Shown one piece after another: positions 7,084 through 28,700 of a stretch of 32,000 nt of DNA (positions are counted from its first letter, which is position 1; each line of letters begins with the position of its first letter). Origin of the DNA: Candidatus Electrothrix yaqonensis (GTDB lineage Bacteria > Desulfobacterota > Desulfobulbia > Desulfobulbales > Desulfobulbaceae); contig CP178758.1 of NCBI GenBank assembly GCA_047651235.1, positions 1,230,001-1,262,000 of the forward strand, in the 5' to 3' direction. The position numbers were made by a program, and so were the translations under genes. Below the pieces are notes generated by a model. It was not told where the DNA came from, did no database searches, and was given only the letters and a program-made list of their open reading frames with translations.

Positions 7084-7131
7084 ACCCCGTCCTTTTGATG
7101 AATATTGCAGCAGGTACTGAAAATCCAAGAT

Positions 7132-7168: not shown

Positions 7169-7242
7169 AATCCAAGTACACATGCAGCGCGCTTTGATCA
7201 GCAGGGGAGCACATTAACCTCCGGTGTTTTTCTGCTCAGGAA

Positions 7243-7734: not shown

Positions 7735-7793
7735 TTGACTACCTCCTTTTCATTTGGGGTATATGGTAGGTGTTACCGCTTATGCGGCTCTGC

Positions 7794-9281: not shown

Positions 9282-9298
9282 ATTGTTTCTCTGCTCCT

Positions 9299-9784
9299 CT
9301 ATTCTTCAATATTGAGCTCTGCCAGCAGCTTCGCTCTGGCCTCTTCATCATCAATGATGGACGCAAGTTTTTTCTTGAACGTCGGGACATTGCCCAAAGG
9401 TCCTTTAACGGCCTTGAGTGCTTCCCGCAGTTCAAGCAGCTGCTTCAGTTCCGGAACCTTTTCCACTATCGCATCTGGAGTAAAATCTTTAATGGACTTA
9501 AAATCAAGCTCAAGAGTCATCTCCGCATCAGGCTCGCTGGAAAGTGTGTCCGGCACAACGGTCTTTAATTTTAACTGCTGTCCGGCAAGCACATCATTGA
9601 AATTATCCTTGTCAATATTGATGGGTTTACGGTCTTCAACAGCCCGATCATCCTCACGCAGAGTAAAGTCCCCCATCACCAGCACTTTCAGCGGCAGCTC
9701 AACCTCTTCCTTGGCATCTCCGGTTGCAGGTTTATAGACAACGTTAACCCGTTCCTTCGGTGCAACAGATCCTTGCTGACCCAT
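9299..9784 (-). CDS. tssB: Type VI secretion contractile sheath small subunit TssB
   Basis: 161-aa ORF. KERVNVVYKPATGDAKEEVELPLKVLVMGDFT is the TssB/VipA signature. SD AGAGGGA upstream. Confidence 0.93.
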   Translation of the reverse strand: MGQQGSVAPKERVNVVYKPATGDAKEEVELPLKVLVMGDFTLREDDRAVEDRKPINIDKDNFNDVLAGQQLKLKTVVPDTLSSEPDAEMTLELDFKSIKDFTPDAIVEKVPELKQLLELREALKAVKGPLGNVPTFKKKLASIIDDEEARAKLLAELNIEE

Positions 9785-9825
9785 ATTGTCCCTCTTTATT
9801 CCAAAATTAATATCATTGTTTGTTT

Positions 9826-9855
9826 AAAATAGCACCAAAAATAAGGTGCTGTCAA
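9826..9855 (-). promoter_or_regulatory. Candidate sigma70-type promoter for tssBC-hcp
   Basis: On the minus strand: TTGACA (9855-9850), an 18-nt spacer, then TATTTT (9831-9826), in the AT-rich 124-bp gap between tssA and tssB. The spacer itself forms the hairpin AGCACC-N8-GGTGCT. Confidence 0.3.
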
Positions 9856-9908
9856 TCTCTATCTTTCTATCTGATTATTATTAACCGACACAAAGTGGTG
9901 TCTCAATG

Positions 9909-11549: not shown

Positions 11550-11583
11550 CTGTCAGCTGTTCATTCCGTTAATATATCGGTGG

Positions 11584-14500: not shown

Positions 14501-15324
14501 TGATCTGAGGAGTCAATACTGTCGGCAAATCCGATAAATCCGGGTACCAGATCCATCTTGGTGATAATCACACGGACCGGAATCTTATACCCGATGGTCC
14601 GCATCAGATTATCAACACGGTTCCGCAGCAGCTGGCCCTGTTTTTTCAGCAGATCTCCGGCAGCTTCCCTGATCAGATCAGCGGAAATAAATAAAAGGAT
14701 ACCGTTGAGCGGCTCCCTTTTTCTGTGTTTTGCCAGCAGGGTGAGAAACCGTTTCCACTCATCCTGATCACCGGTTCCCTCTACAGGGAGAGCATACCGA
14801 CCCGCAGCGTCCAGAACAACAGCCCTATTGAGAAACCACCAGTCGCAGTTTCTTGTTGCTGCGGCCTGACCGTCCTGTTCTGTTCCGGCAACAGAGGCAG
14901 CCAGCCCGAAGTTGCTTATCGCGGTCGTTTTTCCCGTACCTGCCGCACCGATGGCCAGATACCAGGGAAGGACATAGACTGGATTTCCTCTGCTCCGCAG
15001 ATGAGAATCACGCAGCAGGGCAAGATTGGCATGCCAGCTTTTTTCCAGTTCCTTGACCTGGAGCGAATCCGGGGCAGCATCTTCATCAATGATCTGTTCC
15101 TGATCGACAATCTGCTCGACCAGTTTTTTTCCTCTGCGCCGGACCAGATATTTCTTCAGAAACAGCGTAAAGAAAAAACAGGCAATAATACCGGCGCCTA
15201 CAGCCCCGCCGAGCCATGGCGGCCAGTCCAGAAACGCAATTCCCAACCCGGCAACAGCTGCCGCCAGCACAACGACAGCAAGAAAAAGAAGAAACCAGAA
15301 AAATTTTTTCAGCAACCTGTTCAC
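11584..15324 (-). CDS. tssM: Type VI secretion membrane complex protein TssM (IcmF-like)
   Basis: 1246-aa ORF. N-terminal TM segments, Walker A GAAGTGKTT, then a long IcmF-like C-terminal region. It follows tssL. Confidence 0.9.
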   Translation of the reverse strand: MNRLLKKFFWFLLFLAVVVLAAAVAGLGIAFLDWPPWLGGAVGAGIIACFFFTLFLKKYLVRRRGKKLVEQIVDQEQIIDEDAAPDSLQVKELEKSWHANLALLRDSHLRSRGNPVYVLPWYLAIGAAGTGKTTAISNFGLAASVAGTEQDGQAAATRNCDWWFLNRAVVLDAAGRYALPVEGTGDQDEWKRFLTLLAKHRKREPLNGILLFISADLIREAAGDLLKKQGQLLRNRVDNLMRTIGYKIPVRVIITKMDLVPGFIGFADSIDSSDHDQVMGYWNRKGTPFWQEVLDDVMRETGERLREIRREYVLAGRSYQPDFLVFPESFDQLRSGLSSFLEPVFSENRFQETPYLAGIYFGSGRAPLSASPDREIKLAGSGRPFFLTELFSRILADGRERLEPVKEFVLWRRMTRSFGLMSWWLFCLFWAGLVGISFINNQNSLSSAKEITETTYFPSEVPTDQKEFNADVLELEKLRREIIKLEDLNRSNRLSNIHFGHAVNTEQELKKRYCDSFESVLQQPLESRLAHSISRVNEHTSNELFADYADFGVEYIYLLQKYLAEEAIEEISSGFSPAAARILHFPDGTISSEVAGSFADLNKHYLFWTEDRNTAASRLKILQADLVKLLAHRTDDVSWLYHPLITETEAIGLGDFWSHKILQQYNIFFVDGAFTGEGRSNIHAFFKMTAEAMKRRPVAGSLSTKDAVEQSSKTEWVGEKVLEALRQRFRQSYETVFFARWYNFAENFSVARNSLVEEEIFAAKEDNSPHLQTESVSSDQDDTEIDLSPSLPRYHGEKWREAAIRMTKASNPYFTLIEKMAEEVESFAADEDFLQYEENGKKVNPPPWAEAVIAFEEIRQQADTIRKTEGKGLSATAAKVTSRFSKIKSKLGLNKAERIATKTGIGKKQANYAGSKDNLAAAWNEYRKALNALEAATPYKEKTFQVVSNWFREAVNPGDDVSLYGKAYKTAGILHGLAKGKYENSFAWRLVEGPFDFLTEFGLKESAAVFQDQWMEQVVAPSEAVLNEHKRVGFLFEKENGAVWKFVKGSGGPFLQNTVHGYQSRSAFGRSLLLEPALYAFLDQGNSVVINRQADYRVEITNRPMEVNRDATEEPSSSVITVQCAEDEIVLENDNYPRTQIFTWSPDKCSDVNLTIDFPGATLRKHYGGHMAFAHFLNDFIDGALRFTPEDFPDEAGHLKSTNIKNIVLTYSVSGQEEVLRLLELKPVVPRIIALPEQQHGDVIFN

Positions 15325-15330
15325 TCTGCT

Positions 15331-15975
15331 CTATCCCCCCAGGACCGCCCGCATGTGTACATCAAGACGATAAAAGAAGATACAGTAAATACCGATAAGG
15401 ACAGACAGAGGCACCAGGAAGAGAGCAAAGGAACGCAACATATACATTTTCGGAGGTCTGTACCCGTGCCGTTCGTTACTGCTGCGGTAACCGGCAGGAA
15501 ACAGTTTTTTCGACGGAGCCGAACCATTGTCCAGCCTGCTGTACAATGCTGCACGCCGTTCTTCCAGGGAAGCCGGATCGCCGTAGAACCGACCACGAAA
15601 ACCGAGAGCAAAACAGTAGGCAAAGACCTCCAGTAGCTGCTCATCCTGCCGGTCGGCTGCTTCAAGACGGTCATAGAATTCATCGCCGCCGTTATTGGTA
15701 TGAAACAGATGCCGCTGCAGCAGATGATTGCTCCACTCAGATCTAAACGGCAGGTCGGCACAGAGGATCGCCTCATCCATCCAGACGATAACGGCGAACA
15801 GCGCCTCTTCAAACTGCTGCTGATCATATCCGCGCTGCCTGCCGCATTCCCGGACTTCCTCAATAAGTCCGAGGCAATGTTCATGGACCTGACGGGCATC
15901 GGTATATTGCTCCGCATTTTCAGAAAGGCGGAGCACAAAGGCAAAAAGATCGCAGAAACAGTCAACGAGACGCAT
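15331..15975 (-). CDS. tssL: Type VI secretion membrane complex protein TssL (DotU family)
   Basis: 214-aa ORF with a DotU-like cytoplasmic domain and a single C-terminal TM (SFALFLVPLSVLIGIYCIFFY). It lies between tssK and tssM. Confidence 0.85.
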   Translation of the reverse strand: MRLVDCFCDLFAFVLRLSENAEQYTDARQVHEHCLGLIEEVRECGRQRGYDQQQFEEALFAVIVWMDEAILCADLPFRSEWSNHLLQRHLFHTNNGGDEFYDRLEAADRQDEQLLEVFAYCFALGFRGRFYGDPASLEERRAALYSRLDNGSAPSKKLFPAGYRSSNERHGYRPPKMYMLRSFALFLVPLSVLIGIYCIFFYRLDVHMRAVLGG

Positions 15976-15995
15976 AATCCTGCACCACTGTCTTT

Positions 15996-17381
15996 TCAGA
16001 CCCTGGTAATAACAAGTTCAATAACCGTATCATCCGGGGCTCCGTCCCAGTGGAGACAGAAGCGACCGTCTGTGGCCAGTTCTCTCCAGCGGGGATGATC
16101 AATATCAAGCTGAAAGCACCAGCTGTCCTCACGGCGGGCCATACCCAGCGGCGGAACATCCCTGTACTCCAGGGGAACGCCGCCCAAGGCACGGGAAACC
16201 ATCACCGGCATAACGTCACAATGCCCGACCTTGACATGATGGATCACGGTCTCGATAGTGCTTTCATCGCCGGAAAGCAGCCGGACCATCAGACAGTAGA
16301 TATTGCGCTGCCGCAGCGTTTCAGCAGGAATCTCGCAGGAGAACCGGTCATGTTTCCGGATCAGACTGATGATATTTTCAGAGCCCATGACAATGCCTTC
16401 CAGCAGCTCGCTGATCAGCCGCAGAGTCTCCTTGAAACAGGTTTCAAGGGCAAGATGATCATAGGACGGCAGAAGCGAGGTCCCGTCGCGCAGATGCCCC
16501 AAGGCGTTCATCCGATCGCTGAAGGTGCTCAGTTCGCCGATAAGCTGCCGCAGCACCGCATACAGCGTCCAGGGATGCACCCGTGGGGTCTCGATAAAAT
16601 GCTGCAGCAGGGTAAGGTACCGGTTCAGCGATTTCAGCGCGGAGAGATAATTCAGGTTGACGAGCGCCATATCCTTATAGGCATGGCTTCCTGTCGGCTT
16701 ATAGGTTTCCAGGACCCGGCAGCGTGCCTGGACATGCTCCCGGATCTGCTTGACAATCTGCAGCAGGTGCGGTGCTCCCCGAAGCATGAAGACCGGCGGA
16801 ATAAAATCACCGGCTGCCCGGATTTCCTCGCCTTTCATCCGCAGTCTGCCCGCAGGCAGGATCAGATATTCATCTTTATCCGTAAGCTCATCCTTCCAGA
16901 ACAGTTCCAGGCGATGATTGAGCAGATACATTGCCGCTGCCGGGCCGTTTTCATGCAGATCTTCATATTCCACCGGATCGGCATCTTTCTGATAGCGAAC
17001 ACCTTCAGGCGCTTTCTCGCCCTCGGAAATCACATTGCCCCTGAACCGGTCCCAATGCTTCAGGCCGATATAAAAAGGAAAGGTTGCCTCTTCGATAAAG
17101 GCCGCCTCCCGATCGGCAAAGGAGCGGGAAGGCAGGACAGCGTTCTTTCCCAGCACTGTCCAGGTACCGTCCTGAAAAATGGCCTCAAAGGCGGTCAGTT
17201 CGACTACCCGGTTCAGCAGAGCGGCTTCATTGATTTCTATGGACTGGATCCCCCAGAAATAGGGCTGCAGACAGAACTGGACCGGATAAAGCAGCGACTG
17301 CTGGTAGCGGTCAAGGTGCTGAAAATGCTGGGGCTGGAGAAAAAGCCCCTGGTGCCAGAAGATCGGCTGTTCAGGAACCAT
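15996..17381 (-). CDS. tssK: Type VI secretion baseplate protein TssK
   Basis: 461-aa ORF. N-terminus PIFWHQGLFLQPQHFQHLDRY is the hallmark TssK opening. Confidence 0.92.
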   Translation of the reverse strand: MVPEQPIFWHQGLFLQPQHFQHLDRYQQSLLYPVQFCLQPYFWGIQSIEINEAALLNRVVELTAFEAIFQDGTWTVLGKNAVLPSRSFADREAAFIEEATFPFYIGLKHWDRFRGNVISEGEKAPEGVRYQKDADPVEYEDLHENGPAAAMYLLNHRLELFWKDELTDKDEYLILPAGRLRMKGEEIRAAGDFIPPVFMLRGAPHLLQIVKQIREHVQARCRVLETYKPTGSHAYKDMALVNLNYLSALKSLNRYLTLLQHFIETPRVHPWTLYAVLRQLIGELSTFSDRMNALGHLRDGTSLLPSYDHLALETCFKETLRLISELLEGIVMGSENIISLIRKHDRFSCEIPAETLRQRNIYCLMVRLLSGDESTIETVIHHVKVGHCDVMPVMVSRALGGVPLEYRDVPPLGMARREDSWCFQLDIDHPRWRELATDGRFCLHWDGAPDDTVIELVITRV

Positions 17382-17940
17382 GTTGCACCTCCGTTTTCCG
17401 TATGACCCGCAGCCCGTCCCGTCCCAGAGTCAGACTGAGTCCGAGCAGGCTGATTTTGGCATTTTTCCAGATCTTGAACATACCGTGCCCTTCAGTCTCG
17501 TATTTGAGATCCTGGACAGAGACACAGCGGGAGGGCATCAGATCATAATACCCGGCAACAATCCCCACAAATTTGGTGTGCTCTGCCCGGTCAAGGGTGA
17601 GATTCCGGGTGCCGCCCGGCTCGATATAGAGTTTTTCCAGAGCCATAACACTGGGATCAAAAACCTTGGCTTCGAGTAATTTTCTCAACCCTTCCTTGTG
17701 CCCGGCAAGACGGTTGAATTCATTGATCTCCTTTAGCTGGTAAATCACCAGCAGCAGAGAGTTGGGATGGCCGTCCTGTGCATTGAGATCCGGAGCTGCA
17801 CGGTAGACAATATTGATGCCGTTTTCTCCGTATGTCCACTCCGGTTTCGGTTCTTCACCGGCGCAGGCCGGGAGCAGCAACAGACACAGAAAAAAAGGAA
17901 AGTATATTTTTTTTCCACTGAATATAATTTTTTCAACCAC
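17371..17940 (-). CDS. tssJ: Type VI secretion outer-membrane lipoprotein TssJ
   Basis: 189-aa ORF with a GTG start. Lipobox LLPAC. Its size, its position as first gene before tssK, and an 11-nt overlap with tssK all fit. Confidence 0.8.
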   Translation of the reverse strand: MVEKIIFSGKKIYFPFFLCLLLLPACAGEEPKPEWTYGENGINIVYRAAPDLNAQDGHPNSLLLVIYQLKEINEFNRLAGHKEGLRKLLEAKVFDPSVMALEKLYIEPGGTRNLTLDRAEHTKFVGIVAGYYDLMPSRCVSVQDLKYETEGHGMFKIWKNAKISLLGLSLTLGRDGLRVIRKTEVQHGS

Positions 17941-18357
17941 GTACTTTCATTCCTGATAAACAACGATAACAATATTTAATTACTATATTTTTATCCGCAA
18001 AGCAAAGGTCAGGCAAAGGATAAGAACGACAACCTTATTAAAGTTCTTAAAACATATTTGGGTTATTTTCAAACAAAAAAAGAAAGTCAGGCGGATTGAC
18101 GAAGATTCTGCCTGCTTGGCAGGCTGATTTCTATAGAGAAACAGGATGCCGGATTGAGCGGTTTCTCCGTTGTACGGGACGGGCTGTTCTTAGAAGCATG
18201 TTTTTCAAACAGCTTCTAAGTTTCATATTTCCGTATTGGTGGCTTTTGTTCAGGAATGACCGTCATGTCATTGTGGGCAGGGGAGACGGATTGCAGCGAT
18301 GAAATGACATCTGCTTTTGGTGGTGAGTTGCCGCAGCAGAAAAGTTATTGGCGGGCT

Positions 18358-18536
18358 AATGCCGAGTTGACCGGAATTTTCCTGGTATAATGGCCGCTTG
18401 CGGTTGATTATTGCGGGAAAATTTCGAGTCCAACGTTTGGTTCCGAAGGCGCGTAGCGCCGCAGGAATCAAATGTTGGGCCGGTACGGTCAACTCGGCAT
18501 TCCAAAGGCGTGGCCCGAAGGGGCGCGCCTTTGGAA
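18358..18536. other. Densely base-paired non-coding element (candidate structured RNA or palindromic element)
   Basis: A perfect 16-bp long-range inverted repeat, AATGCCGAGTTGACCG (18358-18373) / CGGTCAACTCGGCATT (18486-18501), encloses two nested hairpins (GGAATTTTCC...GGAAAATTTC and CCAACGTTTGG...CAAATGTTGGG, the latter with inner GGCGC-GTA-GCGCC). A second hairpin follows immediately: TTCCAAAGGCG...CGCCTTTGGAA (18500-18536). As minus-strand RNA, the apical loop of the second hairpin (18500-18536) reads UUCG (CCC-UUCG-GGG); a second UUCG in the enclosed region (18443-18446) lies at an internal junction. Confidence 0.4.
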
Positions 18537-18611
18537 CCATGTTGTGGGTGTGAAGATTCAGGAGGAAAAATAATCCTGTCGGAGTATGGTGGCGTATCCG
18601 GTTGGGTATAA

Positions 18612-18875
18612 TTATGAATAATGATACCGGCATGAAATGATCGTAATATATTGATCAGTCACAGCATAAACCAACCTGTTCTGTTCATCAATTCTGCGGG
18701 ACCAGAAACCAGATAAATTTTCCTTTAACGCTTCAGGCTTGCCGATTCCCCTAAAGGGATCACGCTTGACCGCATCAATCAGTTTATTGATCCTTTTCAG
18801 GGTCTTTTTGTCTTGTGACTGCCAATAGACATAATCCTTCCATGCTTCATCCGTCCAGGCAAGCTGTCTATTCAC
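18612..18875 (-). CDS. yoeB: YoeB/Txe-family type II toxin (mRNA interferase)
   Basis: 87-aa ORF. WTDEAWKDYVYWQSQDKKTLKRINKLI...NLSGFWSRRIDEQNRLVY...CRYHY is a classic YoeB sequence. It overlaps yefM by 8 nt. Confidence 0.93.
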   Translation of the reverse strand: MNRQLAWTDEAWKDYVYWQSQDKKTLKRINKLIDAVKRDPFRGIGKPEALKENLSGFWSRRIDEQNRLVYAVTDQYITIISCRYHYS

Positions 18876-19122
18876 GGATCAGCTCTCTTTCGTTTATCTG
18901 ACCGTTCTTATACTGCATGATAGATTTTGCCAAGTGTTCGGCATTGGCCGGTGTTTTGAGGAGATGCAAGGTTTCCATCAGGCTGTTGAAGACCTCCAGC
19001 GACATCACGACGGTATCCTCTCTGTCGCGCCTTGAAATAATTGTGTAATCGGCATCGTCGGTTACTTGATCCAGCACCGCTTTCAGGTTATTTCTTGCTT
19101 CGCTGAAATTCACTACTTTCAT
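18868..19122 (-). CDS. yefM: YefM/Phd-family antitoxin
   Basis: ATG at 19122 with GGAGG 5 nt upstream gives the 84-aa protein MKVVNFSEARNNLKAVLDQVTDDADYTIISRRDRE... The 210-aa ORF in the track is an artefactual upstream extension. Confidence 0.9.
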   Translation of the reverse strand: MKVVNFSEARNNLKAVLDQVTDDADYTIISRRDREDTVVMSLEVFNSLMETLHLLKTPANAEHLAKSIMQYKNGQINERELIRE

Positions 19123-19148
19123 TATCGCCTCCAGACTTGTTCTGTTTA

Positions 19149-19156
19149 TTGTACAA
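19149..19156. promoter_or_regulatory. Candidate YefM-YoeB operator palindrome (TGTACA core)
   Basis: TTGTACAA lies 27 nt upstream of the yefM start. The E. coli yefM-yoeB operator is built from palindromes with a 5'-TGTACA-3' core. Confidence 0.4.
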
Positions 19157-19210
19157 GTATAACTCGGCAGCATGCAATTAGCAAATGAATAGTCGTGACG
19201 GTGGACAGAG

Positions 19211-19373
19211 GGATCAGTTAAATGTGGATTTGTCGGGCCGGGCTGAACCGTGAGAACCTGTACAAGGCTTTTGCCGGAGAGGGTAATCCGAGATTTTCCA
19301 CGGTCAGCAGGGGCATCAAGGCATTGGGGTGCCGACTGGCTGTTGTGTGAAGGCGGGAAACAAAGGAGCCGGA
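19211..19373 (+). repeat. Repeat copy A (higA-3'-derived unit, right end truncated)
   Basis: Translates in one frame to GIS*MWICRAGLNRENLYKAFAGEGNPRFSTVSRGIKALGCRLAVV*. It contains the 50-nt core at 19282-19331, identical to copies C and E. Confidence 0.85.
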
Positions 19374-19528
19374 GGCATATCAATAACGAACAGGACGGCA
19401 CCGGGTGACTGCCGGATGGGAACGGGAAAGAATATCCCTCATTTTTTTTCTGTTGTTTCCGGCGCGGCTTTCCTGTATTATAAATACACAGGCCGCACAT
19501 AAGGTTAAGCTAACCTGGAGGAGATAAA

Positions 19529-19768
19529 ATGAACATTACGCTCTCAGCAGATCAGGAAATCATAAATAAGAGCCGCCAATATGCAAAAAAATGCGGCATT
19601 TCCCTGAACAGTATCATAAGAAGCTACCTAAAAGATATCAGCGGGGAAAATGACAGAAGGGAAAATGCCGAAGAATTTTCGCGGTTGGCTGAAACCGAAG
19701 CCGGTTGTTCTGAACCCGGATACAGGTTTGACAGAAATGAAATTCATGATCGGAGTCACAGAGCATGA
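19529..19768 (+). CDS. Antitoxin of a VapBC-type pair (small DNA-binding protein with MNITLS... N-terminus)
   Basis: 79-aa ORF with SD GGAGGAG upstream. It overlaps the downstream PIN gene by 4 nt (ATGA). N-terminus MNITLSADQEIINKSRQYAKKCGISLNSIIRSYL is typical of PIN-partner antitoxins. Confidence 0.8.
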   Translation: MNITLSADQEIINKSRQYAKKCGISLNSIIRSYLKDISGENDRRENAEEFSRLAETEAGCSEPGYRFDRNEIHDRSHRA

Positions 19769-20175
19769 AAAAAATTTTCATTGATACAAACCTGATCGTT
19801 TACGCCAATGACCGTCGAGACCCGCAAAAACAACAGAAGGCTATTGAGCTGATCAAAGAATTGATGGGTGTCGGATTGGGGGTTATTTCCTCACAGGTTT
19901 TGCAGGAATACGCCAATACAGCCCTCACGAAATTACATCAGAATCATACTATCGTTTTGCGACAGCTCAACCTTCTGGAATCATTTGAGGTTGTTCTCCT
20001 GAAGCCCGTTTTAGTCCGACGTGCGATAGAAATAAAAAGCAGCTACGGTATCAGCTTCTGGGATTCCTGCATTATCAGTGCGGCTGAAGCAGCCGGGTGC
20101 GACAGTATATACTCTGAAGATCTGAGTTCGGGACAATATTATTCCGGGATGAAATTGGTCAATCCTTTTTTATAA
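19765..20175 (+). CDS. vapC: PIN-domain toxin (VapC family)
   Basis: 136-aa ORF. MKKIFIDTNLIVYA carries the first acidic PIN residue. Later WDSCIISAAEAAGCDSIYSEDL is a typical PIN C-terminal motif. Confidence 0.88.
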   Translation: MKKIFIDTNLIVYANDRRDPQKQQKAIELIKELMGVGLGVISSQVLQEYANTALTKLHQNHTIVLRQLNLLESFEVVLLKPVLVRRAIEIKSSYGISFWDSCIISAAEAAGCDSIYSEDLSSGQYYSGMKLVNPFL

Positions 20176-20228
20176 TACCCTCAACAGGTTGCGGTTTGCA
20201 ACTTCAGCGATGTCGCGCCGGTGGGCAG

Positions 20229-20451
20229 CGGGATCAGTGAAATGCGAATTTTTGTCGAGCCGGGTTGAATCGTGAGAGCTTGTACAAGGCTCTTGCCGGA
20301 GAGGGTAATCTGAAGTTTTCCACGGTCAGCAGGGGCATCAAGGCCTTGGAGTGCCGACTGGCTGTTGTGTGAAGACGGGAAACAGAGGCGCTATATGCTG
20401 TTTTTGCAACAATTCCAATTCGGTGATCAATTGAGTCCGATCCCATTGATC
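20229..20451 (+). repeat. Repeat copy B (full-length unit with terminal hairpin)
   Basis: Encodes GISEMRIFVEPGLNRESLYKALAGEGNLKFSTVSRGIKALECRLAVV*. It then has the conserved tail with ATG-CTG-TTT-TTG-CAA-CAA and the hairpin GATCAAT-N13-ATTGATC (20425-20451). Confidence 0.85.
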
Positions 20452-20457
20452 TCTATC

Positions 20458-20868
20458 TCAAGACAGCGCAAGTTTAAACTTCTTTCTGCCCTTGATACGG
20501 TAGATGGTAAAATCTCTGTCTATGGTTGCCACGGTATTAAGACCGAGCTGTTCTGCAAGGTAGACAAGGCATGAATCGGCAAAGTCCATCGGAAGATCTT
20601 TATATTTTTCCGTCAGCTCCCTTATCCGCCCGAAGTCGCTGTTTTCAATATTCCGTATTTCTACAGCGCCTCTGTGTATCCATTCCAGGAAATCCAGTTG
20701 AGCCTGTCTGCTGAAGTCCAGCATATGCAGTGTTTCCGTCACAGATGCCAAGGTGGTGACCAGCGGGGTTCTGTTTGTGCGGATAAAATCGACCGCTACC
20801 TGATGATACCTGTCCGAGGCATCAAACAGGGCGATCATCGGGCCGGAATCCATCAGGATTTTTTTCAT
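20458..20868 (-). CDS. PIN-domain toxin (VapC-like)
   Basis: 136-aa ORF. MKKILMDSGPMIALFD...PMDFADSCLVYLAEQLGLNTVATIDRDF is a PIN fold signature. It is paralogous to the ORF at 22452-22868. Confidence 0.85.
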   Translation of the reverse strand: MKKILMDSGPMIALFDASDRYHQVAVDFIRTNRTPLVTTLASVTETLHMLDFSRQAQLDFLEWIHRGAVEIRNIENSDFGRIRELTEKYKDLPMDFADSCLVYLAEQLGLNTVATIDRDFTIYRIKGRKKFKLALS

Positions 20869-21107
20869 TTTCTTTTGGCCCGGATTTTGTCCTTTACAAG
20901 CTCTTTTCGTCGTCCAGAGAGGTCATCGCGACCGCTGGCGTGTTTGCCGAAAAGGTCTTGACCTGCATCCCAGGCGTTCCGAGGTTTGAGCCTGCCTATA
21001 TAGTCAAGAATGCTTCGTCGGATCAGTTCCGACTTTGAGAGTCCTAAGTTTTCCGCTGTGTTTTTCAGTAGCTGTTCCAGCTGAGGATCAAGTCTTAGGG
21101 TAATCAT
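20865..21107 (-). CDS. Ribbon-helix-helix (CopG-like) antitoxin
   Basis: ATG at 21107 with GGAGGTG upstream gives the 80-aa protein MITLRLDPQLEQLLKNTAENLGLSKSELIRRSILDYI... It overlaps the PIN gene by 4 nt. The 150-aa ORF in the track is an artefactual extension through repeat C. Confidence 0.85.
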   Translation of the reverse strand: MITLRLDPQLEQLLKNTAENLGLSKSELIRRSILDYIGRLKPRNAWDAGQDLFGKHASGRDDLSGRRKELVKDKIRAKRK

Positions 21108-21120
21108 ATAGTTCACCTCC

Positions 21121-21139
21121 GTATTACGGATTGTAATAC
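21121..21139. promoter_or_regulatory. Candidate operator palindrome for the RHH antitoxin
   Basis: Perfect inverted repeat GTATTAC-GGATT-GTAATAC, 14 nt upstream of the RHH antitoxin start. Confidence 0.4.
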
Positions 21140-21169
21140 ATTGAGAGGTGAATTGCAAGGAGGGTGGCA

Positions 21170-21399
21170 TGGCGCAGAAATGTCGCATTGGGATATCCGG
21201 CCGGAAAACAGGAAATGACCGAGGCGGTCGGAAAGGCAGGCTGAATCGTGAGAGCCTGTATAAGGCTTTTGCCGGAAACGGTAATCCGAGATTTTCCACG
21301 GTCAGCAGGGGCATCAAGGCATTGGGGTGCTGGCTGGCTGTTGCGTGAAGACGGAAAACATAGGAGCCGGATGCTGTTTTTGCAGCAATTCCGATTCCG
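21170..21399 (+). repeat. Repeat copy C (no terminal hairpin; preceded by an SD and ATG)
   Basis: AAGGAGG-N5-ATG at 21169 opens MAQKCRIGISGRKTGNDRGGRKGRLNRESLYKAFAGNGNPRFSTVSRGIKALGCWLAVA*. The core at 21280-21329 is identical to A and E. The tail is conserved up to about 21399. Confidence 0.8.
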
Positions 21400-21519
21400 A
21401 ATGTCAGCCGTAAAAATTGGATTGGATTAGTAAGAAAAATCTTGACGGATACCCTAAAATACAGCTAGACTGTCTAGGTGAAAGATGCTAAAAAGAAATA
21501 ACTGCAAGGAGAACAATAT

Positions 21520-21780
21520 ATGATAAGAAGAACAACTTGGGCACTTCAGGATGCCAAAAACAAATTCAGTCGAGTGGTCAACGAAGCACTCACGCACGGG
21601 CCGCAATATGTTAAGCGGAGAGGTGTTGATACCGTCGTTGTACTGTCGGTCCGTGATTATGAGAAATTGACCTCGCAGAAGCCCTCGTTTACCGACTTTC
21701 TGTTAAGTGCTCCAAAAATCGGCAATAATGCCGATCTGTTTGAGAGGCAGCATGAATATCCGAGGGAACTTGATTTATGA
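21520..21780 (+). CDS. Phd/YefM-type antitoxin
   Basis: 86-aa ORF. TWALQDAKNKFSRVVNEALTHGPQYVKRRGVDTVVVLSVRDYEKL is a typical Phd-fold N-terminal domain. It overlaps the PIN gene by 4 nt. Confidence 0.88.
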   Translation: MIRRTTWALQDAKNKFSRVVNEALTHGPQYVKRRGVDTVVVLSVRDYEKLTSQKPSFTDFLLSAPKIGNNADLFERQHEYPRELDL

Positions 21781-22199
21781 ACTATCTGCTGGACACATGC
21801 GTGATCTCTGAGCTGGTCAAACCTCGACCAAATACTGCTGTGACTGACTGGCTTGCCCGGACTCCTGCGGACCGCCTGTTTCTGAGTTCCCTCACAATAG
21901 GAGAGTTGAAACGAGGTATTACGCGGCTGCCCGAGTCAAAAAAGAAAAGCCACCTGATGATGTGGCTTGAGACGCTGCTGGCGGACTACAGTGACAGGAT
22001 TCTCCCTGTTGATAGTGCTGTGGCTGAAGCATGGGGGATTATGCAGGCGCGGGCGGAGGATTCAGGACAGAGGATGTCGATTATTGACGGGTACATTGCC
22101 GCCACGGCATCAGTATACCAGATGACTGTCGTGACACGAAATGAGGAGGATTTTTCTCCGAGTCATCAGGCAATACTGAATCCGTGGAAGATGCTTTGA
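21777..22199 (+). CDS. vapC: PIN-domain toxin (VapC/FitB-like)
   Basis: 140-aa ORF. MNYLLDTCVISELVKPRPN...SLTIGELKRGI...IIDGYIAATASVYQMTVVTRNEEDF is a classic VapC sequence. Confidence 0.9.
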   Translation: MNYLLDTCVISELVKPRPNTAVTDWLARTPADRLFLSSLTIGELKRGITRLPESKKKSHLMMWLETLLADYSDRILPVDSAVAEAWGIMQARAEDSGQRMSIIDGYIAATASVYQMTVVTRNEEDFSPSHQAILNPWKML

Positions 22200-22200
22200 G

Positions 22201-22433
22201 TCAGCTTGGAAGCCCACAGCAGGCAATGATGGCCGAAGTGGCCGGGTTGAATCGTGAGAGCCTGTACAAGGCTCTTGCCGGAGAGGGTAATTCGAGATTT
22301 TCCACGTTCAGCAGGGGTATCAAGGGCTTGGGGTGCCGACTGGTTGTGGTGTGAAGACGGGAAAGAAAGGAGCCGGATGCTCTTTTTGCAACAATTACAA
22401 TTGTGAGATCAATCGAGTCCGACCCCATTGATC
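22201..22433 (+). repeat. Repeat copy D (full-length unit with hairpin)
   Basis: It starts 1 nt after the vapC stop and encodes QLGSPQQAMMAEVAGLNRESLYKALAGEGNSRFSTFSRGIKGLGCRLVVV*. SD plus ATG at 22377 gives MLFLQQLQL*. Hairpin GATCAAT-N13-ATTGATC at 22407-22433. Confidence 0.85.
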
Positions 22434-22451
22434 AAGCAAATCCTCCACTGA

Positions 22452-22868
22452 TCATTGATGCGGAATGACCTCCAACATGGAACCGTCCGAAAGGCGATAG
22501 ATATAAAAATCACTGTCAACGGTAAAAATCCGTTTCATTTTTCCATGCTCCGCCAAGGCGACCAAGGATGCATCGGCCAGATCCATCGGCGTATCCTGAT
22601 ATCTTTTCATCAACTTATGCATTGTCTTGGTCTCTGAAAGGGTCGGCTCATGAAGTTCCAGCTTCATCTCCTCTACTAACTTCCAAAGAACAGCCTGATA
22701 ACGAAAGCCGCCGACCGCTCCGAGAATATGCATGGCCTCGGTAAAGCACGGCCATGTTGTCAGCATAGGTTCGGCAGGCAAGGTCTTCACGGTATCAATA
22801 CAACGTCTATGATGATTGTCCCTTTTATCAAGCAGCGCAATAAGCGGCCCGGTATCGGTTAATATCAT
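22452..22868 (-). CDS. PIN-domain toxin (VapC-like)
   Basis: 138-aa ORF. MILTDTGPLIALLDKRDNHH...PMDLADASLVALAEHGKMKRIFTVDSDF. Homologous to the ORF at 20458-20868. Confidence 0.85.
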   Translation of the reverse strand: MILTDTGPLIALLDKRDNHHRRCIDTVKTLPAEPMLTTWPCFTEAMHILGAVGGFRYQAVLWKLVEEMKLELHEPTLSETKTMHKLMKRYQDTPMDLADASLVALAEHGKMKRIFTVDSDFYIYRLSDGSMLEVIPHQ

Positions 22869-23155
22869 ATTTTTCCCTGTCGGCGTTTTGCCGCAAGGAT
22901 ATCAGCAAATCTTTTTCCGGTATTTGCGGACATCTGCGCACCACCCGGAACAACTTCTCCGCTGTCGATGGTGCCGATATCTCCTTTCAACATATCAGCC
23001 AAACTGTTCATCCCGGAATCTTCCTGTTTTTTTCTCTCTTTTTGAAAAAAGCATTCCCGAAGTGTTTTCAGAACAATTGATTCGACAGTTGCTCCCTGTT
23101 TTCTGGCCACCCGAATTAATACCTGCTCAATTTCCGGCGTTAAAGTTATATTCAC
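22865..23155 (-). CDS. Antitoxin partner of the PIN toxin
   Basis: 96-aa ORF overlapping the PIN gene by 4 nt. The N-terminus MNITLTPEIEQVLIRVARKQGATVESIVLKTL resembles the 19529-19768 antitoxin. Confidence 0.75.
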   Translation of the reverse strand: MNITLTPEIEQVLIRVARKQGATVESIVLKTLRECFFQKERKKQEDSGMNSLADMLKGDIGTIDSGEVVPGGAQMSANTGKRFADILAAKRRQGKI

Positions 23156-23295
23156 GAAAAATCCTCGCTATATTTGTTCCTGTTATTTTTTGCAGCAGGG
23201 TGATAGCCTGACCGCATACTACCCAACAGTTTGTTCTCTGCTGTTATGCTGCCATATTTATCTGTATGATGCAAGGTCGTTTCTGTTCAGGGGGG

Positions 23296-23513
23296 GGCGG
23301 CGAGGTGGCCGGAAAGGCCGGGCAGAACCGTAAGAGCCTGTTCAAGGCTCTTGCCGGAGAGGGTAATCCGAGATTTTCCACGGTCAGCAGGGGCATCAAG
23401 GCATTGGGGTGTGCCGACGGGCTGTTGCGTGAAGACGAGAAACAAAGGAGCAGGATGCTCTTTTTGCAACAATTCCAATTCCGGGATCAATCGAGTCCGA
23501 TCTCATTGATCCC
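23296..23513 (+). repeat. Repeat copy E (full-length unit; reading frame broken near the 3' end)
   Basis: Encodes ...EVAGKAGQNRKSLFKALAGEGNPRFSTVSRGIKALGC, then loses the frame and stop through a 2-nt insertion. Core at 23362-23411 is identical to A and C. SD plus ATG at 23455. Hairpin GGGATCAAT-N13-ATTGATCCC at 23483-23513. Confidence 0.85.
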
Positions 23514-23530
23514 TGTGACCCCTATTCCCC

Positions 23531-24139
23531 TTAAAATTCACCGCAGTAACCTTCATAATTCTCTGGATTACGTCTTGCCAGCCTAGGATGCTCATGGGCA
23601 AGACGCTCAGCAGAAGCAGGATCAATAGCTCCGCGATGATGTATATGGCCGTTCTTATGACTCAACTCGTGAATAACGGTTTTGGCACGTTGATGCTGAC
23701 TCATACGAAACCAACTTGGGCATAGCTTAATTCGAGTACCTGGAGAACAATATGCCACATTGTCCCCATTACACAGATACGAACGATTACCACTCTCATG
23801 CTGAATGAGAGCAAACCGTACATCTTTCTCGAATTCCTTTCGAATTCTTTCCATTCGGCGACGAGTTCGTCGTATCTGCGCATTAGTTAATTTACCTCTC
23901 CCAAACCACCGAACAACAATTGCATTCGCCCTCCACGCAGCTTTTCTTCTTCTACGCCGTCGTCTACCGCGTCCGGGCTGATTCCATATTTCTGCAAGAA
24001 CACGTAAACCTTCTATTGCCATCCTTTCCGCATCGTTCGCGGCATCCTCAATAGCCGTCCTCTGCGTGCCTGTAATCGGCCTATCACCGTTTCGATTTCT
24101 TCGTACCCTTATGTCTACCGTTGCCATGTCAAACCTCAT
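23531..24139 (-). CDS. M35/aspzincin-like zinc metallopeptidase domain protein, no signal peptide
   Basis: 202-aa ORF. A better-placed SD (GAGG) favours the ATG at 24127. HExxH motif in TVIHELSHKNG. The C-terminal ARRNPENYEGYCGEF resembles the NADSYxxF tail of the lysine-specific metalloendopeptidase family. The upstream LCNGDNVAYCSPGTRIKLCPSWF fits that family's pre-motif region. It also has an unusual GRGRRRRRRRK tract. Confidence 0.65.
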   Translation of the reverse strand: MRFDMATVDIRVRRNRNGDRPITGTQRTAIEDAANDAERMAIEGLRVLAEIWNQPGRGRRRRRRRKAAWRANAIVVRWFGRGKLTNAQIRRTRRRMERIRKEFEKDVRFALIQHESGNRSYLCNGDNVAYCSPGTRIKLCPSWFRMSQHQRAKTVIHELSHKNGHIHHRGAIDPASAERLAHEHPRLARRNPENYEGYCGEF

Positions 24140-24164
24140 GTTGATAATTGCTAATTAAAAATAT

Positions 24165-25241
24165 CTAGTTGCATTCCCCACTATCCCAATCGAAATGTTC
24201 ACAAAATAAATCATAGCCTGTATCCGTGCCTTTCTTGTCACATACACTATCATTTTTCTTCTTGAAGGCGGTTGACCTTCTGACACATTTACGGGAGCAA
24301 TCACGAATTCTTCCATCCCCGCAGGGAGCACCAACTTCATTCAGCTTATAGACAGAATCACGCAGGCATACAGCCATTACTTTACAGTCATTTGAAGAAC
24401 GACCACGATGCCGCTGAGACCAGCCGGATAAATCTGAATTTGGAAAATTCCAGTCCCCATCGTCTCCATCTGTACAATAGGAACCACCACTCAATACTTT
24501 AGCATCTTTGCAGCTTGTACTTCCGTTGCCATAACCTGTGTGACTTTCCGAACGATATACGCCTCTCCCCATCCAATGGTTTTCTTTTACACAAATAGCA
24601 TGAACTCTACAGTTGTTAGATGATGATCCACGATGCCATTCTTTCCAGCCCGCGAGAGATTCGTCTGGATAAGCCATATCTAAGTCGCCATCTTCACACC
24701 AGCTTCCTCCCCCAACAGCTTTGTAACCGGTTGGGCAGTCAACACTCCCTTTACCATAAAAAGTTTCTTTTTCCGTAGCTAAGATATCTTCTTTTCCAAA
24801 CCAGATAGGAGTTACGCAGTTGGATTTACAACCCGTTGATTTTGTTCAACTGACGGTTTGCAGCTCTAACAAGCGAACCTATTGTAACAACTGCGCTTCC
24901 TGTTTTCAACTGCGTAACTCCTACCAGATTTTAGGAGCACATACAGCATACACATTACAATCATTAGAGGAAGCTCCGCGATGCCATTCAGCCCACCCTA
25001 CAGGAACTTTGTATTTATACCCACTTTGTGATTCTGTGATAGGATACGTTACGTCAAGTTCTCCATCGTTACATCGTGAACCGCCTCCTAGTGCAAACAT
25101 ATCACTCGGACATCGCACCTCTCCTTGTCCATATTTTGTGAATTCTTTAACTATTATAAGATCTTGAGCAAGTGCTGTGTTGCCTATAATGGTATAAAAA
25201 ATAATGTACAAATAGGATTGAATAATCAATTTAGATTTCAT
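24165..25241 (-). pseudogene. Secreted cysteine-rich triple-repeat protein gene, interrupted by a 116-bp insertion
   Basis: ORF 24921-25241 has an SD (GAGGA) and a signal peptide (MKSKLIIQSYLYIIFYTIIGNTALA/QD). Frame 24165-24845 is the same frame. Removing 24807-24929 (123 bp) joins ...AVCAPKIW to FGKEDILATEKETFYGKG..., giving a ~318-aa protein. That protein has three copies of a module YG.G...C....(A/L).GG(G/S)..C.DG......(Y/F)P...(L/V).GW...HRG.SSN(D/N)C.V.A(V/I)C. Confidence 0.75.
24807..24922. mobile_element. MITE-like non-autonomous insertion
   Basis: Perfect 16-bp terminal inverted repeats AGGAGTTACGCAGTTG (24807-24822) / CAACTGCGTAACTCCT (24907-24922), flanked by the 7-bp direct repeat ACCAGAT (24800-24806 and 24923-24929). 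The interior has no ORF and has further partial palindromes. Its excision restores a continuous reading frame. Confidence 0.75.
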
Positions 25242-25346
25242 CACTTTCCTCTTAACTGCCTGATTTAATGGATACTGTTATATATAGTAATATTACTAAA
25301 ACATACTGTTTCAAAAAAGTAAACAGAAATCCGACATGGCAGAATG

Positions 25347-25789: not shown

Positions 25790-28700
25790 TCACCCCACAA
25801 CCTCAACCCGAATAGCACAAAGCTTATACTCCGGCGTCCGGGAAAGCCGATCCAGCGCATCCAGAGTCAGCAGGTTAACCGGGGTCTCGGCATAGTTATA
25901 GGTAGTGAAAATGGTACCGGGCTGACTGCGCTCGGTGATCTCCGCCTTGATGGTGACCTCGCCCCGCCGGGAGGTGAGTTTCAGCATATCACCCGACTTA
26001 ATCCCCAGCCGCTCGGCATCTGCCGGGTTGACTTCGGCCAGAGCCTCTGGAGCGATATCATCAATCTCCTCGGTCTTGCCGGTCATGCTGACAAAGTTGT
26101 AGCGGGCATAATGGCGGCCCGTGGTGAAGAGCATGGGATACTCGTCATCCACCGGCTCTTTGGGCGCCATGTAGTCCTCCGGCACAAACAGGCCCTTGCC
26201 CCGGGTAAAGCTCTTAGTATGCAGAACGGTAGTTCCCGGATGATCAGCGTCCGGGACCGGCCACTGCAGGCCCTCGTCCTCAAGCCGGGCATAGGACATG
26301 CCGCAATACTGGGGCAGCAGCTCGCAGACCTCATCAAAGATATCCTCAGTCTTTGTGTAGCCCATTGCATAGCCCATACGCTCGGCCAGCTCGGTGAGGA
26401 TCAGCCAGTCCGGCTTGGCCTGTCCCGGCGGTTCCACTGCCTTGCGGATACGCTGTACCCGCCGCTCCGTGGAGGTGAAGGTGCCGTCTTTTTCCGCAAA
26501 ACAGGCTGCCGGCAGAACCACGTCCGCCTCTTTGGCCGTGTCGGTGAGAAAGATATCTTGGACAATAAGGAAATCCAGATGCCGCAGGGCCTTATGAACA
26601 TGGCCGATATTAGCATCAGCAATGGCCGGATCTTCACCAAACACGTACAGGGCTCGAATTTCATCCTGAAGGATATTATCCCAGACCTCGGTAGCTGGCT
26701 TGCCGGGCTGGCGCGGCATTTTCACGCCCCAGCGTTCTTCGTACTTATCGAACAGCTCATCATTGCTCAGACCGCCGTATCCGGGCAGGGTGTTGAACAG
26801 AGCGCCCATATCGCAGGCCCCCTGGACATTATTCTGACCGCGCAGCGGATTACAGCCGCCGCCTTCCACCCCGACCTTGCCGCAGAGCATGGCCATGTTG
26901 GCGATAGATTTCACCCGGTCCGTACCGGTATGGTAATGGGTAATCCCCATGCCGTGGTAAAAGGCATTGCGCCCCGGAGCCGCATACATCCGTGCTGCCT
27001 GTTCCATCTCGGCAACAGTCAGGCCGGTGATTTCCGCCACCTTCTCCGGCGGATAATTTTCCACCAGGGCTTTCAGTTCGTCGAAATCCTCGGTGCGTTC
27101 TGCAACAAATTGTTTGTCCCAAAGATCCTCTTTGAGGATGATGTGCATCAGGCCGTTGAGCAGGGCCACATCCGTGCCCGGCTGGATGCGGAGCCAAAGG
27201 TCGGCCCGTTCTGCCAGCTTGGTCCTGCGCGGATCAATCACCACCAGCTTGGCGCCCCGATCCAGGGCCTGATGGATACGCATCCCGATGGTCGGGTGAC
27301 TGGTATCCGGGTTGGAGCCGATCATAAAAAAGAGATCGGTTTTGTCATTGAGTACATCCGCAATGGAATTGGTCATTGCGCCGGAACCGAACGTGATGGC
27401 CAGACTGGCCACCGTGGGAGCGTGTCAAAGTCGGGCACAGTGATCGATATTATTCGTCCCGATCACCGTGCGCATAAACTTCTGCATGAGAAAATTTTCT
27501 TCATTGCTCGCCCTGGCGCAGGAAAATCCGGCAATGGAGTCCGGTCCGTAGTCCTTTTTGACCGCAGTCAGCCGGTCCGCAATAAAATCGTAGGCCTCAT
27601 CCCAAGATGCCTCCTGCAGCTCACCGTTACGGCGAATCAGCGGGGTGGTCAGACGTTCCTTGTCCTGAACAAAGTTGAAGGCGAACCGGCCCTTGACGCA
27701 GAGCGCACCATAATTGGGTGCCAGCTCCGGCTCCGAGGTGACCTCCATAATCGTGTCGCCCTTGACCTTGAGCTGCATCTGACAGCCAGCCCCGCAGTAG
27801 GGGCAGGTGGTGCGTACATAGCGCACATCTTCGTTGAGGATGGGGGAAAGCACGTCCTTCTTGCTGATCGTGCCGGTGGAGCAGCTGTCCGCGCATTGGC
27901 CGCAATGCACGCATTTTTCATTAAAGCGGAGAGAAATACCTGTGGCCAAGCCCTGCTCATCTTGGGAGGTGCAGCTCAGCTCCAGCGCGTCGTATGCACA
28001 GGCATTGACGCAGCGGCGGCAGTACACGCATTTATTCAGATCCACATTGAGCATGGGATGCGAACTGTCTAGGCTGTACGCCGGGGCACCGGCCATACCG
28101 GTTTTGTTCAGGTTGATGTCGCTGTCAATGCAGAGCTGCTTGAAGTCGCAGGTATCATAGGCCATGCAGCCGCATTCCAGACAGCGATCTGCTTCCCGCT
28201 TGGCTGCGGTCTCGTTAAAGCCCAGCCGGACTTCTTCATTGTCCAGCACTGCTGTTTCCGGGGTGCGGTCCGGCATGAGAGTGCGCTCCTGCTTATCAAA
28301 CCGTTCCAGCACCTTGGCATCTACAGCAGCAAAGGACTTGCCGCGCGTGAAGTTGAACCGGCTTTCCGCCGGAGCTTCAGCAATACCCATTACAGCGGCA
28401 TGGATATTTTCTGCGGCCTTGCGCCCGGAACTGACCACTTGAATCAGGGCGCGGGTGCCGCTGGCTGCCTCGCCTGCCGCATAGACCCCGTCCATACTAG
28501 TCATCGAAGTTCTGACATTGGCCTTGATCAGGTTTTTCGGGGTAAAGTCCACAGGAAACGGGGCATCGCCCTCGGTACAGGCCATCTGGCCCTGGGCATG
28601 AATGATCGTATCCACCAGCAGGACATCAAAGGCATCCGGAACCGGCTGCAGCTGCTGTTTTCCTCTTTTGTCCGGTTTCCCCAACTCCATCTGGGCCAGG

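Follow-up and report, generated by a model that had tools for sequence, protein, structure and literature searches.

A toxin–antitoxin cassette array linked by co-oriented higA–vapC relics in Candidatus Electrothrix yaqonensis

A 32-kb window of Candidatus Electrothrix yaqonensis (contig CP178758.1, positions 1,230,001–1,262,000), to which all coordinates refer and which is labelled W or, in comparisons between genomes, YB6, carries five complete and mutually unrelated type II toxin–antitoxin (TA) pairs set apart by five same-strand repeats of ~200 nt at a spacing of ~1 kb. The locus is a variation on the cassette array, with integron-like architecture, accretion-like anatomy and a linker whose pseudogene origin can be traced. 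Three genomes share it as one locus with differing cassette sets and orders, and the identity between them changes abruptly near the left margin of the repeat. We tentatively propose a sedentary, hypervariable TA cassette array reshuffled by position-specific recombination at a short core in the relic linker; this recombination would be site-specific and depend on a recombinase whose gene lies at another place in the genome, a reading that is plausible yet falls somewhat short of probable. The arrays compared were those of E. gigas AU1_5 (L003), Electrothrix GW3-4 (L006), Rat3 (L007) and Desulfobulbus sp. TB (L008). Literature searches on cable-bacterial toxin–antitoxin systems and on Electrothrix and integrons turned up no account of the locus.

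Composite origin and neutral evolution of the repeat

The repeats (R1–R5) lie on the plus strand with start-to-start distances of 1022, 976, 1006 and 1076 nt, and a repeat profile built from full-length copies, whose positions are cited below, has only these five matches in the window (Table 1). All five copies share a frame reading ...AGLNRESLYKALAGEGNPRFSTVSRGIKALGCRLAV(V/A)*, R5 being frameshifted near its end by a 2-nt insertion, and encode the C-terminal ~40 residues of a HigA-family antitoxin. Their peptides match the NCBIfam model TIGR02684 (addiction module antidote protein) at profile positions 37/47/53–88 of 89 only (E 4e-8 to 5e-11), covering its C-terminal 36–52 positions with scores of 33–43 bits, below the cut-off of 53.7. 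The N-terminal half of HigA was found in none of the five, and helices 1–2 of the helix-turn-helix (HTH) domain are missing. R1, R3 and R5 share exact runs of 50–61 nt. A first-pass annotation of the window had described five plus-strand copies of a higA 3′ repeat about 1 kb apart, with a shared frame, no N-terminal half and identical stretches of 50 nt, and repeat search, profile, translation and TIGR02684 matches bear out each of these points. Reading frames identical to those of R1–R4 are annotated in Candidatus Electrothrix sp. YB6 (XOF34793, XOF34796, XOF34799 and XOF34802), where they form every third gene of a single run.

On its sequence, the repeat is a composite scar, made of the 3′ half of higA with its stop codon (higA′), an internal piece of vapC (vapC′) and a palindrome. 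The left two-thirds constitute a native higA relic, because the DNA of an intact higBA locus (L013) aligns with profile positions 6–141, many of the differences being synonymous. With a full-length query, ~150 intact 92-aa HigA proteins were recovered, the named ones from Electrothrix, Electronema and Desulfobulbus-type genomes; those retrieved have nearly the same C-terminus as the repeats, Electrothrix and Electronema proteins ending in ...AGLNRESLYKALAGEGNPRFSTVSRVIKALGCRLAVA. The family of an intact higBA progenitor, which the first-pass annotation had envisaged, is hence represented, L013 included. vapC′ is joined to higA′ 5 nt past the higA stop codon: profile positions 138–189 (~50 nt) match the interior of intact cable-bacterial vapC at codons ~48–66 (GKRETKELDAVFATIPIL), with 96% identity at best (L030 849–898; also L031) and E-values of 1e-12 to 1e-17. 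This internal fragment and the palindrome make up the final ~80 nt of the repeat. In R3 and its E. gigas counterpart vapC′ is ~22 nt longer, while other copies end in the 30-nt palindrome GGGATCAATCGAGTCCGATCCCATTGATCCC; the right part of R3 also bears a signature common to the repeats preceding cassette C4 in other genomes. The earlier description of the repeat as a higA 3′ end is thus correct for its left two-thirds, but the remainder derives from vapC, with the palindrome. The notion that the region past the stop codon is the terminator of higA itself was dropped in view of its far better match to the vapC interior.

A second relic, the L element, stems from the 3′ end of the same vapC and marks the left boundary of the array. 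Its positions 18548–18611 match Rat3 (L007) at 9129–9192, and positions 18550–18605 match the end of an intact E. laxa vapC (L031 10370–10425). Desulfobulbus sp. TB has higA′, a vapC′ with an internal deletion and L in one unbroken stretch, and the ancestor was therefore one higA′::vapC′ scar. Promoter and terminator scans gave no consistent signal in the repeats. A 570-aa member of the repeat-fragment protein cluster proved to be a clustering artefact.

The repeat is a relic under neutral evolution and not a gene. In a set of 14 copies drawn from five genomes, codon positions 1/2/3 have 16/19/18 variable sites, pairwise divergence at these positions is 0.100/0.117/0.118, and codons departing from the consensus comprise 51 nonsynonymous and 29 synonymous cases. 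Conservation is roughly uniform along the repeat, without a sharply conserved block. Neither a full-length HTH domain nor purifying selection, as expected of a functional HigA antitoxin (TIGR02684/PF21716), was seen. The first-pass annotation had considered that the repeats might be homogenised or selected; selection on a peptide is contradicted by variation that is flat over codon positions, and homogenisation is rejected because identity within genomes (87.3%) is no higher than between them (87.7–88.0%). It is likewise extremely unlikely that the fragments are expressed mini-proteins or regulatory decoys under selection. The open frame is retained in four of the five copies and the Rat3 fragment frame overlaps a PIN stop codon, features that would suit such a role, but there is no synonymous excess, R5 is frameshifted, the peptides lack HTH helices 1–2 and score below the family cut-off, and the non-coding part (14% divergence) is conserved similarly to the 'coding' part (11%).

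A 29-nt form of the terminal palindrome, GGGATCAATCGAGTCTGATCCCATTGAT, was also encountered in an unrelated IMG/VR contig (3300025033_000102, L012; 13330–13358), where additional CCCATTGAT half-sites adjoin it, beyond the tail-fibre genes of the contig and beside a sensor-like open reading frame (ORF). The palindrome may be a protein-binding motif of wider distribution. Of the two pattern scans of viral contigs, one returned no match and the other only this short palindrome past the tail-fibre genes.

Cassette turnover and the point of exchange

The cargo belongs to the Pfam families YoeB, PhdYefM (twice), PIN (four times), RHH_1 and DUF6364, together with a weak ParD match, which places it among type II TA systems; the pairs are probably stabilising or anti-phage modules. 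Pfam also upholds the earlier count of five complete pairs with orientations -,+,-,+,- from C1 to C5. The two minus-strand PIN proteins, estimated by eye at roughly 30% identity, are 35% identical, the remaining PIN pairs 18–27% and the antitoxins 18–28%.

A formate-dehydrogenase-like (FDH) gene in the right flank is common to YB6, GW3-4 and Rat3 at 81–90% amino-acid identity, and the array locus is therefore orthologous in these three genomes; E. gigas AU1_5 and TB carry arrays punctuated by the same repeat (R) at different loci. Cassette order is L, C1, C2, C3, C4, C5 in YB6; C1, HigBA, FitA/PIN, C5, C4 in GW3-4; FitA/PIN, 76aa/PIN, C4 in Rat3; C4, 76aa/PIN in TB; and (C4 remnant), Y, FitA/PIN, C4 in E. 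gigas. C4 is thus present in five genomes in differing contexts, and E. gigas retains the remnant of a second copy. Two genome pairs show inverted cassette order, C5 standing before C4 in GW3-4 and after it in YB6, and both C1 (96%) and C5 (96.3%) are nearly identical between YB6 and GW3-4. In YB6, Rat3 and E. gigas the array closes on the right with a complete repeat, and in YB6, Rat3 and TB it opens with the vapC 3′ relic L. The first-pass annotation had proposed that tandem duplication followed by drift is insufficient and, as one of two alternatives, that cassettes are exchanged or inserted at the repeats, and had advised comparing the locus across strains; the gain, loss and reordering of cassettes at the repeats, at a locus common to three genomes, agree with both proposals. 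The strict alternation of orientation that it had emphasised is present in YB6 but is no rule (GW3-4 -,-,-,-,+; Rat3 -,+,+), and it is regarded as coincidental because the other arrays do not alternate, its chance being 1 in 16.

The position of exchange emerges from segment-wise identities, Fisher tests and a three-way alignment. Between W and Rat3, C4 and its tail are 97.6% identical up to 22241, and R4 to the right of it 88.9% (p 1.5e-6). Between W and GW3-4, identity rises from 64% in the tail before R4 to 96.7% across R4 and C5 (98.4% in R4; p 1.8e-10), falls from there to 85.5% in R5 (p 2.5e-8), and falls again from 95.9% in C1 and its tail to 89.1% in R1 (p 0.003). These four comparisons represent three junctions, since the Rat3 step and the GW3-4 tail/R4 step are both C4|R4. 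The three-way alignment places C4|R4 at 22241–22247, within the core at 22242–22259, and from 22242 onwards R4 corresponds to the GW3-4 repeat ahead of C5. All three steps fall at profile positions ~18–30 of a ~220-nt homology block, at the motif CCGGGYTGAAYCGTGAGA (higA codons ~52–56; also written CCGGGTTGAATCGTGAGA or CCGGGYTGAAYCG). Homology around this core extends 20–50 nt to the left, in tails bearing higA codons 38/47–52, and ~190 nt to the right.

Because the steps lie at the left repeat margin, inheritance of the repeat is not tied to the cassette ahead of it, contrary to the earlier pairing of each repeat with the preceding cassette. C5 is the clear case: the whole repeat goes with the cassette that follows, and both ends of the unit are alike in two genomes. 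The unit of exchange would accordingly begin at the core, take in the remainder of the repeat, the TA operon that follows and a short tail with a few higA codons, and end at the next core, and units would be gained, lost and reordered through recombination concentrated at the core. In such a scheme, small circular elements would integrate into the 3′ half of higA, each bringing its own copy of the gene end, and repeated integration would yield a tandem array with co-oriented repeats and freely oriented cargo. The succession of core, relic, cargo, tail and next core, closed on the right by a complete relic, fits repeated integration of this kind.

Several observations weigh against site-specific exchange. 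No recombinase was found in the window (Pfam, including 19 long candidate ORFs flanking the array) or within ~7–10 kb of the GW3-4 and Rat3 arrays (precomputed Pfam lists), and around the breakpoint no inverted-repeat core of the tyrosine-recombinase type is obvious. No circular intermediate was found either. The left end of the YB6 array has no intact higBA, the vapC relic and C1 occupying that place. Placement to within a few bases was reached only for C4|R4, mismatch density locating the other two junctions to ~15–40 nt, and linker–cargo junctions are heterogeneous, with truncated repeats and deletions. C4 is linked to the right part of the repeat only; in Rat3 and TB it is preceded by L and not R, so other rearrangements occur too. 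Finally, other repeat families separate cassettes in related TA islands, and inter-cassette repeats may therefore be a by-product of turnover.

The serious rival is homologous recombination alone, in which a composite scar was duplicated and ~200-bp direct repeats drive unequal crossing-over with no dedicated site or enzyme, cassettes being reshuffled as blocks are duplicated or deleted and array DNA from outside is taken up via the flanking repeats. We consider it rather unlikely, although much can be said for it: the exact stretches of 50–61 nt are long enough for RecA, the second-C4 remnant in E. gigas records a duplication, the inversion of C4–C5 and C5–C4 could be obtained by block duplication followed by loss, and the imprecise junctions, the truncated or internally deleted repeats and the failure to find a recombinase in the window or the GW3-4 and Rat3 flanks are all as expected. 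The nearest neighbours of most repeats, moreover, vary by repeat segment, in an analysis whose resolution is too low to map crossovers inside the repeat. What argues against this process is the placement of the three steps in the poorly conserved leftmost ~30 nt, away from the best-conserved centre (positions 46–105) where RecA-mediated exchange would be expected; under uniform placement, the rough chance of such clustering is ~0.003. The identical ends of the C5 unit in two genomes point the same way, as does the lack of within-genome homogenisation, since gene conversion should accompany homologous exchange.

Site-specific recombination at the core is also to be set against the view that the repeats are bystanders, one of several intergenic families of TA islands with no role in movement, the differences between arrays reflecting loss from a larger ancestral array. 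The E. gigas AW1 contig (L019) starts inside an intact-type higA 3′ end, where the contig is cut, and continues directly into three TA cassettes (HigBA, BrnTA and ParDE) separated by another repeat family, CCCTGTGACGCAGGATAATCCCCC...GGCTTCGGGGG, and not by R. A TA island of E. laxa (L031) holds a 330-nt repeat at 9350–9677 and 16955–17283, and the L030 island likewise has another repeat family. TA islands of cable bacteria thus seem to have inter-cassette repeats as a rule, and this, the palindrome in an unrelated contig and the near-uniform conservation along the repeat would suit bystanders. We nevertheless hold this account to be improbable: the annotated YB6 fragments are consecutive in this single array, cassette order is inverted in two genome pairs, the identity steps coincide with the repeat margin, and the repeat stands solely between TA cassettes at every recovered locus (5+4+5+2+1 copies), a confinement that refers to recovered loci and annotated ORFs rather than whole-genome scans. 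For a dispersed family of the repetitive extragenic palindrome or miniature inverted-repeat transposable element type, many copies with terminal inverted repeats, scattered regardless of gene content, would be expected; in the 32-kb window no repeat copy lies outside the array, and every recovered copy lies in a TA array.

Wider searches yielded little more. A metagenome scan with the higA-core pattern gave no match, and one with the right-part pattern gave 11 loci, nine of them without a repeat-profile match, one weak (L021) and one an intact vapC (L030). Three of four genome-scan matches (Arthrobacter, Paenarthrobacter and Brevundimonas) cover ~25 nt of the repeat only and were set aside as unrelated. 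A 19-bp palindrome, AGAGCCTGTACAAGGCTCT, was rejected as a recombinase core, mismatches starting to the left of it and no compensatory change being seen. A near-copy of the core, CCGGTTGAATGCGTGAA, lies close to the beginning of L and close to the 3′ end of intact vapC, its reading frame and protein context being different there, and is regarded as an unexplained coincidence; core or near-copy sites outside the window are listed at L030 1054–1071, L008 8230–8248 and L006 12154–12170.

Table 1. Components of the TA cassette array, in window coordinates
Feature	Extent	Strand	Profile match	Repeat search	Composition
L element	18530–18611	+			vapC 3′-end relic (…VECVKMQEER*) and its downstream hairpin; left array boundary
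Cassette C1	18612–19122	-			YoeB toxin 18612–18875 (PF06769, E 7e-42); Phd/YefM antitoxin 18868–19122 (PF02604, E 9e-22)
R1	19234–19377	+	19234–19377	19226–19429	higA′ (stop 19348–19350); start of vapC′ only, truncated at profile position 164; core 19238–19255
Cassette C2	19529–20175	+			DUF6364-type antitoxin 19529–19768 (PF19891, E 3e-8); PIN toxin 19765–20175 (PF01850, E 1e-12)
R2, complete	20233–20453	+	20233–20453	20248–20454	higA′ stop 20370–20372; vapC′ 20375–20420; palindrome ~20423–20451; core 20260–20277
Cassette C3	20458–21110	-			PIN toxin 20458–20868 (PF01850, E 4e-7); ribbon-helix-helix antitoxin 20865–21110 (PF01402, E 8e-6)
R3	21220–21422	+	21220–21399	21224–21430	higA′ stop 21346–21348; longer vapC′ 21351–21422; without palindrome; core 21236–21253
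Promoter-like site of C4	21442–21471				own site of C4, from promoter scan
Cassette C4	21520–22199	+			Phd/YefM antitoxin 21520–21780; PIN toxin 21777–22199 (Pfam)
C4 tail	22200–22241				additional higA relic, codons ~38–52
R4, complete	22220–22434	+	22220–22434	22230–22436	higA′ stop 22352–22354; vapC′ 22357–22405; palindrome ~22404–22433; core 22242–22259
Cassette C5	22452–23155	-			PIN toxin 22452–22868 (PF01850, E 1e-7); ParD-like antitoxin 22865–23155 (PF09386, E 1e-3, below cut-off)
R5, complete, frameshifted	23300–23513	+	23300–23513	23306–23514	extra GT near 23409; vapC′ 23435–23480; palindrome ~23483–23513; core 23318–23335; right array end

Comparison with integrons and other cassette systems

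The attC sites of integrons carry an inverted core pair, R″ (RYYYAAC) and R′ (GTTRRRY), 50–160 nt apart, and form an imperfect single-strand hairpin. No such pair was found in or beside the repeats by exact regular expression or relaxed scan of both strands over 18000–24200 (mean 0.02 in shuffles), and the repeat halves and the 128 nt upstream of each core fold like shuffles on either strand (z -2.5 to +0.8). The terminal palindrome pairs over 7–9 bp only, without compensatory changes. The motif GTTGAAT in the core of four copies does conform to GTTRRRY. The earlier likening to an integron does not hold for a canonical one, and its report of no recombinase in the window and no attC core sites in the repeats agrees with the Pfam and attC scans.

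Immediately to the left of the array, two strong adjacent hairpins occupy 18425–18536, where single-stranded DNA folds at -43.4 kcal/mol (z -7.45). One of them, the first, is a 53-nt palindrome at 18428–18480 and contains the sole attC-like RYYYAAC...GTTRRRY pair in 18000–24200, outside the repeats. Both contain TTCCRAAGGCGYG, which occurs nowhere else in the window. G.T wobbles in 18428–18480 are found on the plus strand only, which suggests an RNA-level or strand-specific structure.

Two articles bear on the comparison, one on IntegronFinder (PMC4889954) and one on TA cassettes in chromosomal integrons (PMC13108822). Clusters of attC sites without an integrase are termed CALIN. The array resembles sedentary chromosomal integron arrays and CALINs in its ~1-kb tandem cassettes, its conserved and co-oriented repeats and TA cargo placed in either orientation with its own promoters. 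It shares with integron arrays a fixed locus whose content and order vary among relatives, and with CALINs the lack of an adjacent integrase. Unlike in integrons, the linker is a ~200-nt higA′::vapC′ pseudogene devoid of an R″/L″–L′/R′ palindrome, hairpin or extrahelical bases, exchange occurs at the left repeat margin, and more than one linker type (R, L) serves the same cassette. The possibility of a canonical integron array or CALIN, with the repeats as unusual attC sites for IntI, is in our view remote: the architecture, the fixed locus and variable order, the GTTGAAT cores and the palindrome at 18428–18480 are suggestive, yet no R″/R′ pair, no folding better than in shuffles and no IntI were found, and the repeat is a pseudogene.

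Of the three analogies drawn in the first-pass annotation, accretion at an attachment site overlapping a gene 3′ end fits best, the steps falling within one short stretch of the higA relic. Tandem accretion at gene 3′ ends is a habit of integrative and integrase-less cis-mobilisable elements, such as islands at tRNA genes and ICESt1/CIME at fda. As in accretion, the direct repeats here copy the 3′ part of a real host gene, a copy can move together with its neighbour on one side, the crossovers may share one position within the gene and a complete copy of the gene end closes the array. Unlike in accretion, the units are only ~1 kb and hold a TA pair alone, a partner element with an integrase was not seen, the other end of the array lacks an intact target gene in this genome and the gene end is fused to a second pseudogene piece.

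The pdif modules of Acinetobacter plasmids, bounded by XerC/XerD sites of 28 bp (11-6-11) in alternating orientation, are also comparable, being small, often TA-bearing, bounded by short sites and shuffled with no dedicated recombinase gene nearby; the repeats described here differ in their length of 200 nt and single orientation. No 11-6-11 dif-like site was recognised in them by eye, no dif model having been run. Orphan toxin/immunity arrays downstream of cdiA and rhs, the third analogy, likewise consist of variable toxin modules, and a piece of a conserved gene stands before each module as a handle for recombination. In those arrays this piece comes from the conserved 5′-proximal portion of the toxin gene itself and is in frame with the module, whereas the linker described here comes from the 3′ end of an antitoxin gene unrelated to the cargo, which consists of whole type II TA operons facing either way.

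Taken further, the locus might belong to a cable-bacterial cassette-capture system with a double-stranded core in the higA relic, an unlinked putative recombinase and ~1-kb TA (defence) cassettes held in a fixed chromosomal array, an extension that we regard as doubtful. If true, it would be a second, independently evolved integron-like platform in which the origin of the linker is still legible. The origin of integron cassettes and attC sites is unresolved, and the linker described here can be traced base by base to native higA and vapC, having spread onto unrelated TA cargo recently enough (~12% divergence) for reconstruction. Should recombination at the core prove site-specific, an integron-like shuffling platform with a different chemistry would operate in an uncultured multicellular bacterium; should homologous recombination alone be at work, the locus would still show clearly how pseudogene scars can organise a hypervariable TA/defence island. 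The repeats also break short-read assemblies of cable-bacterial genomes, most related matches lying on contigs of 1–5 kb.

Other higA-bearing loci and flanking genes

Three further loci carry higA-type sequences in other settings. In L011, a group II intron reverse transcriptase (889–2235) comes after a divergent HigA′ fragment (25–119), and in E. communis (L009) a nearly full-length higA without a start codon (1040–1312) precedes a PD-(D/E)XK (Rpn-like) nuclease gene (1442–2296). L016 (1584–8960) has an intact higA, without a called higB, ahead of zinc ribbon, Band-7, deaminase, radical SAM and Schlafen/AlbA_2 genes, a defence-like run which suggests that intact higA genes may also border variable regions.

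The window contains no tRNA or tmRNA gene, and Rfam returned nothing relevant for the whole window at the gathering threshold or for 17900–24200 at E<=5. The array abuts a type VI secretion cluster on the minus strand (3803–17940) comprising tssG, tssF, gp25-like tssE, hcp, tssC, tssB, tssA, IcmF-like tssM, tssK and tssJ; left flanks at this locus differ in GW3-4 and Rat3. To the right, R5 is followed by an M35-like metallopeptidase gene (23531–24139) and by two genes for small Cys-rich proteins (24165–24677 and 24921–25244, both minus strand), which have GWxEWHRGxSSNxCxVxAVC in common and match no Pfam family. Gene content between the array and the FDH gene differs in GW3-4 and Rat3. The FDH-like gene itself (25790–29902, minus strand) has an in-frame TGA at 27425–27427, within NIDHCARL*HAPTV and at the usual selenocysteine position; it probably represents a single selenoprotein gene with a fusion to flavin/Fe-S domains.

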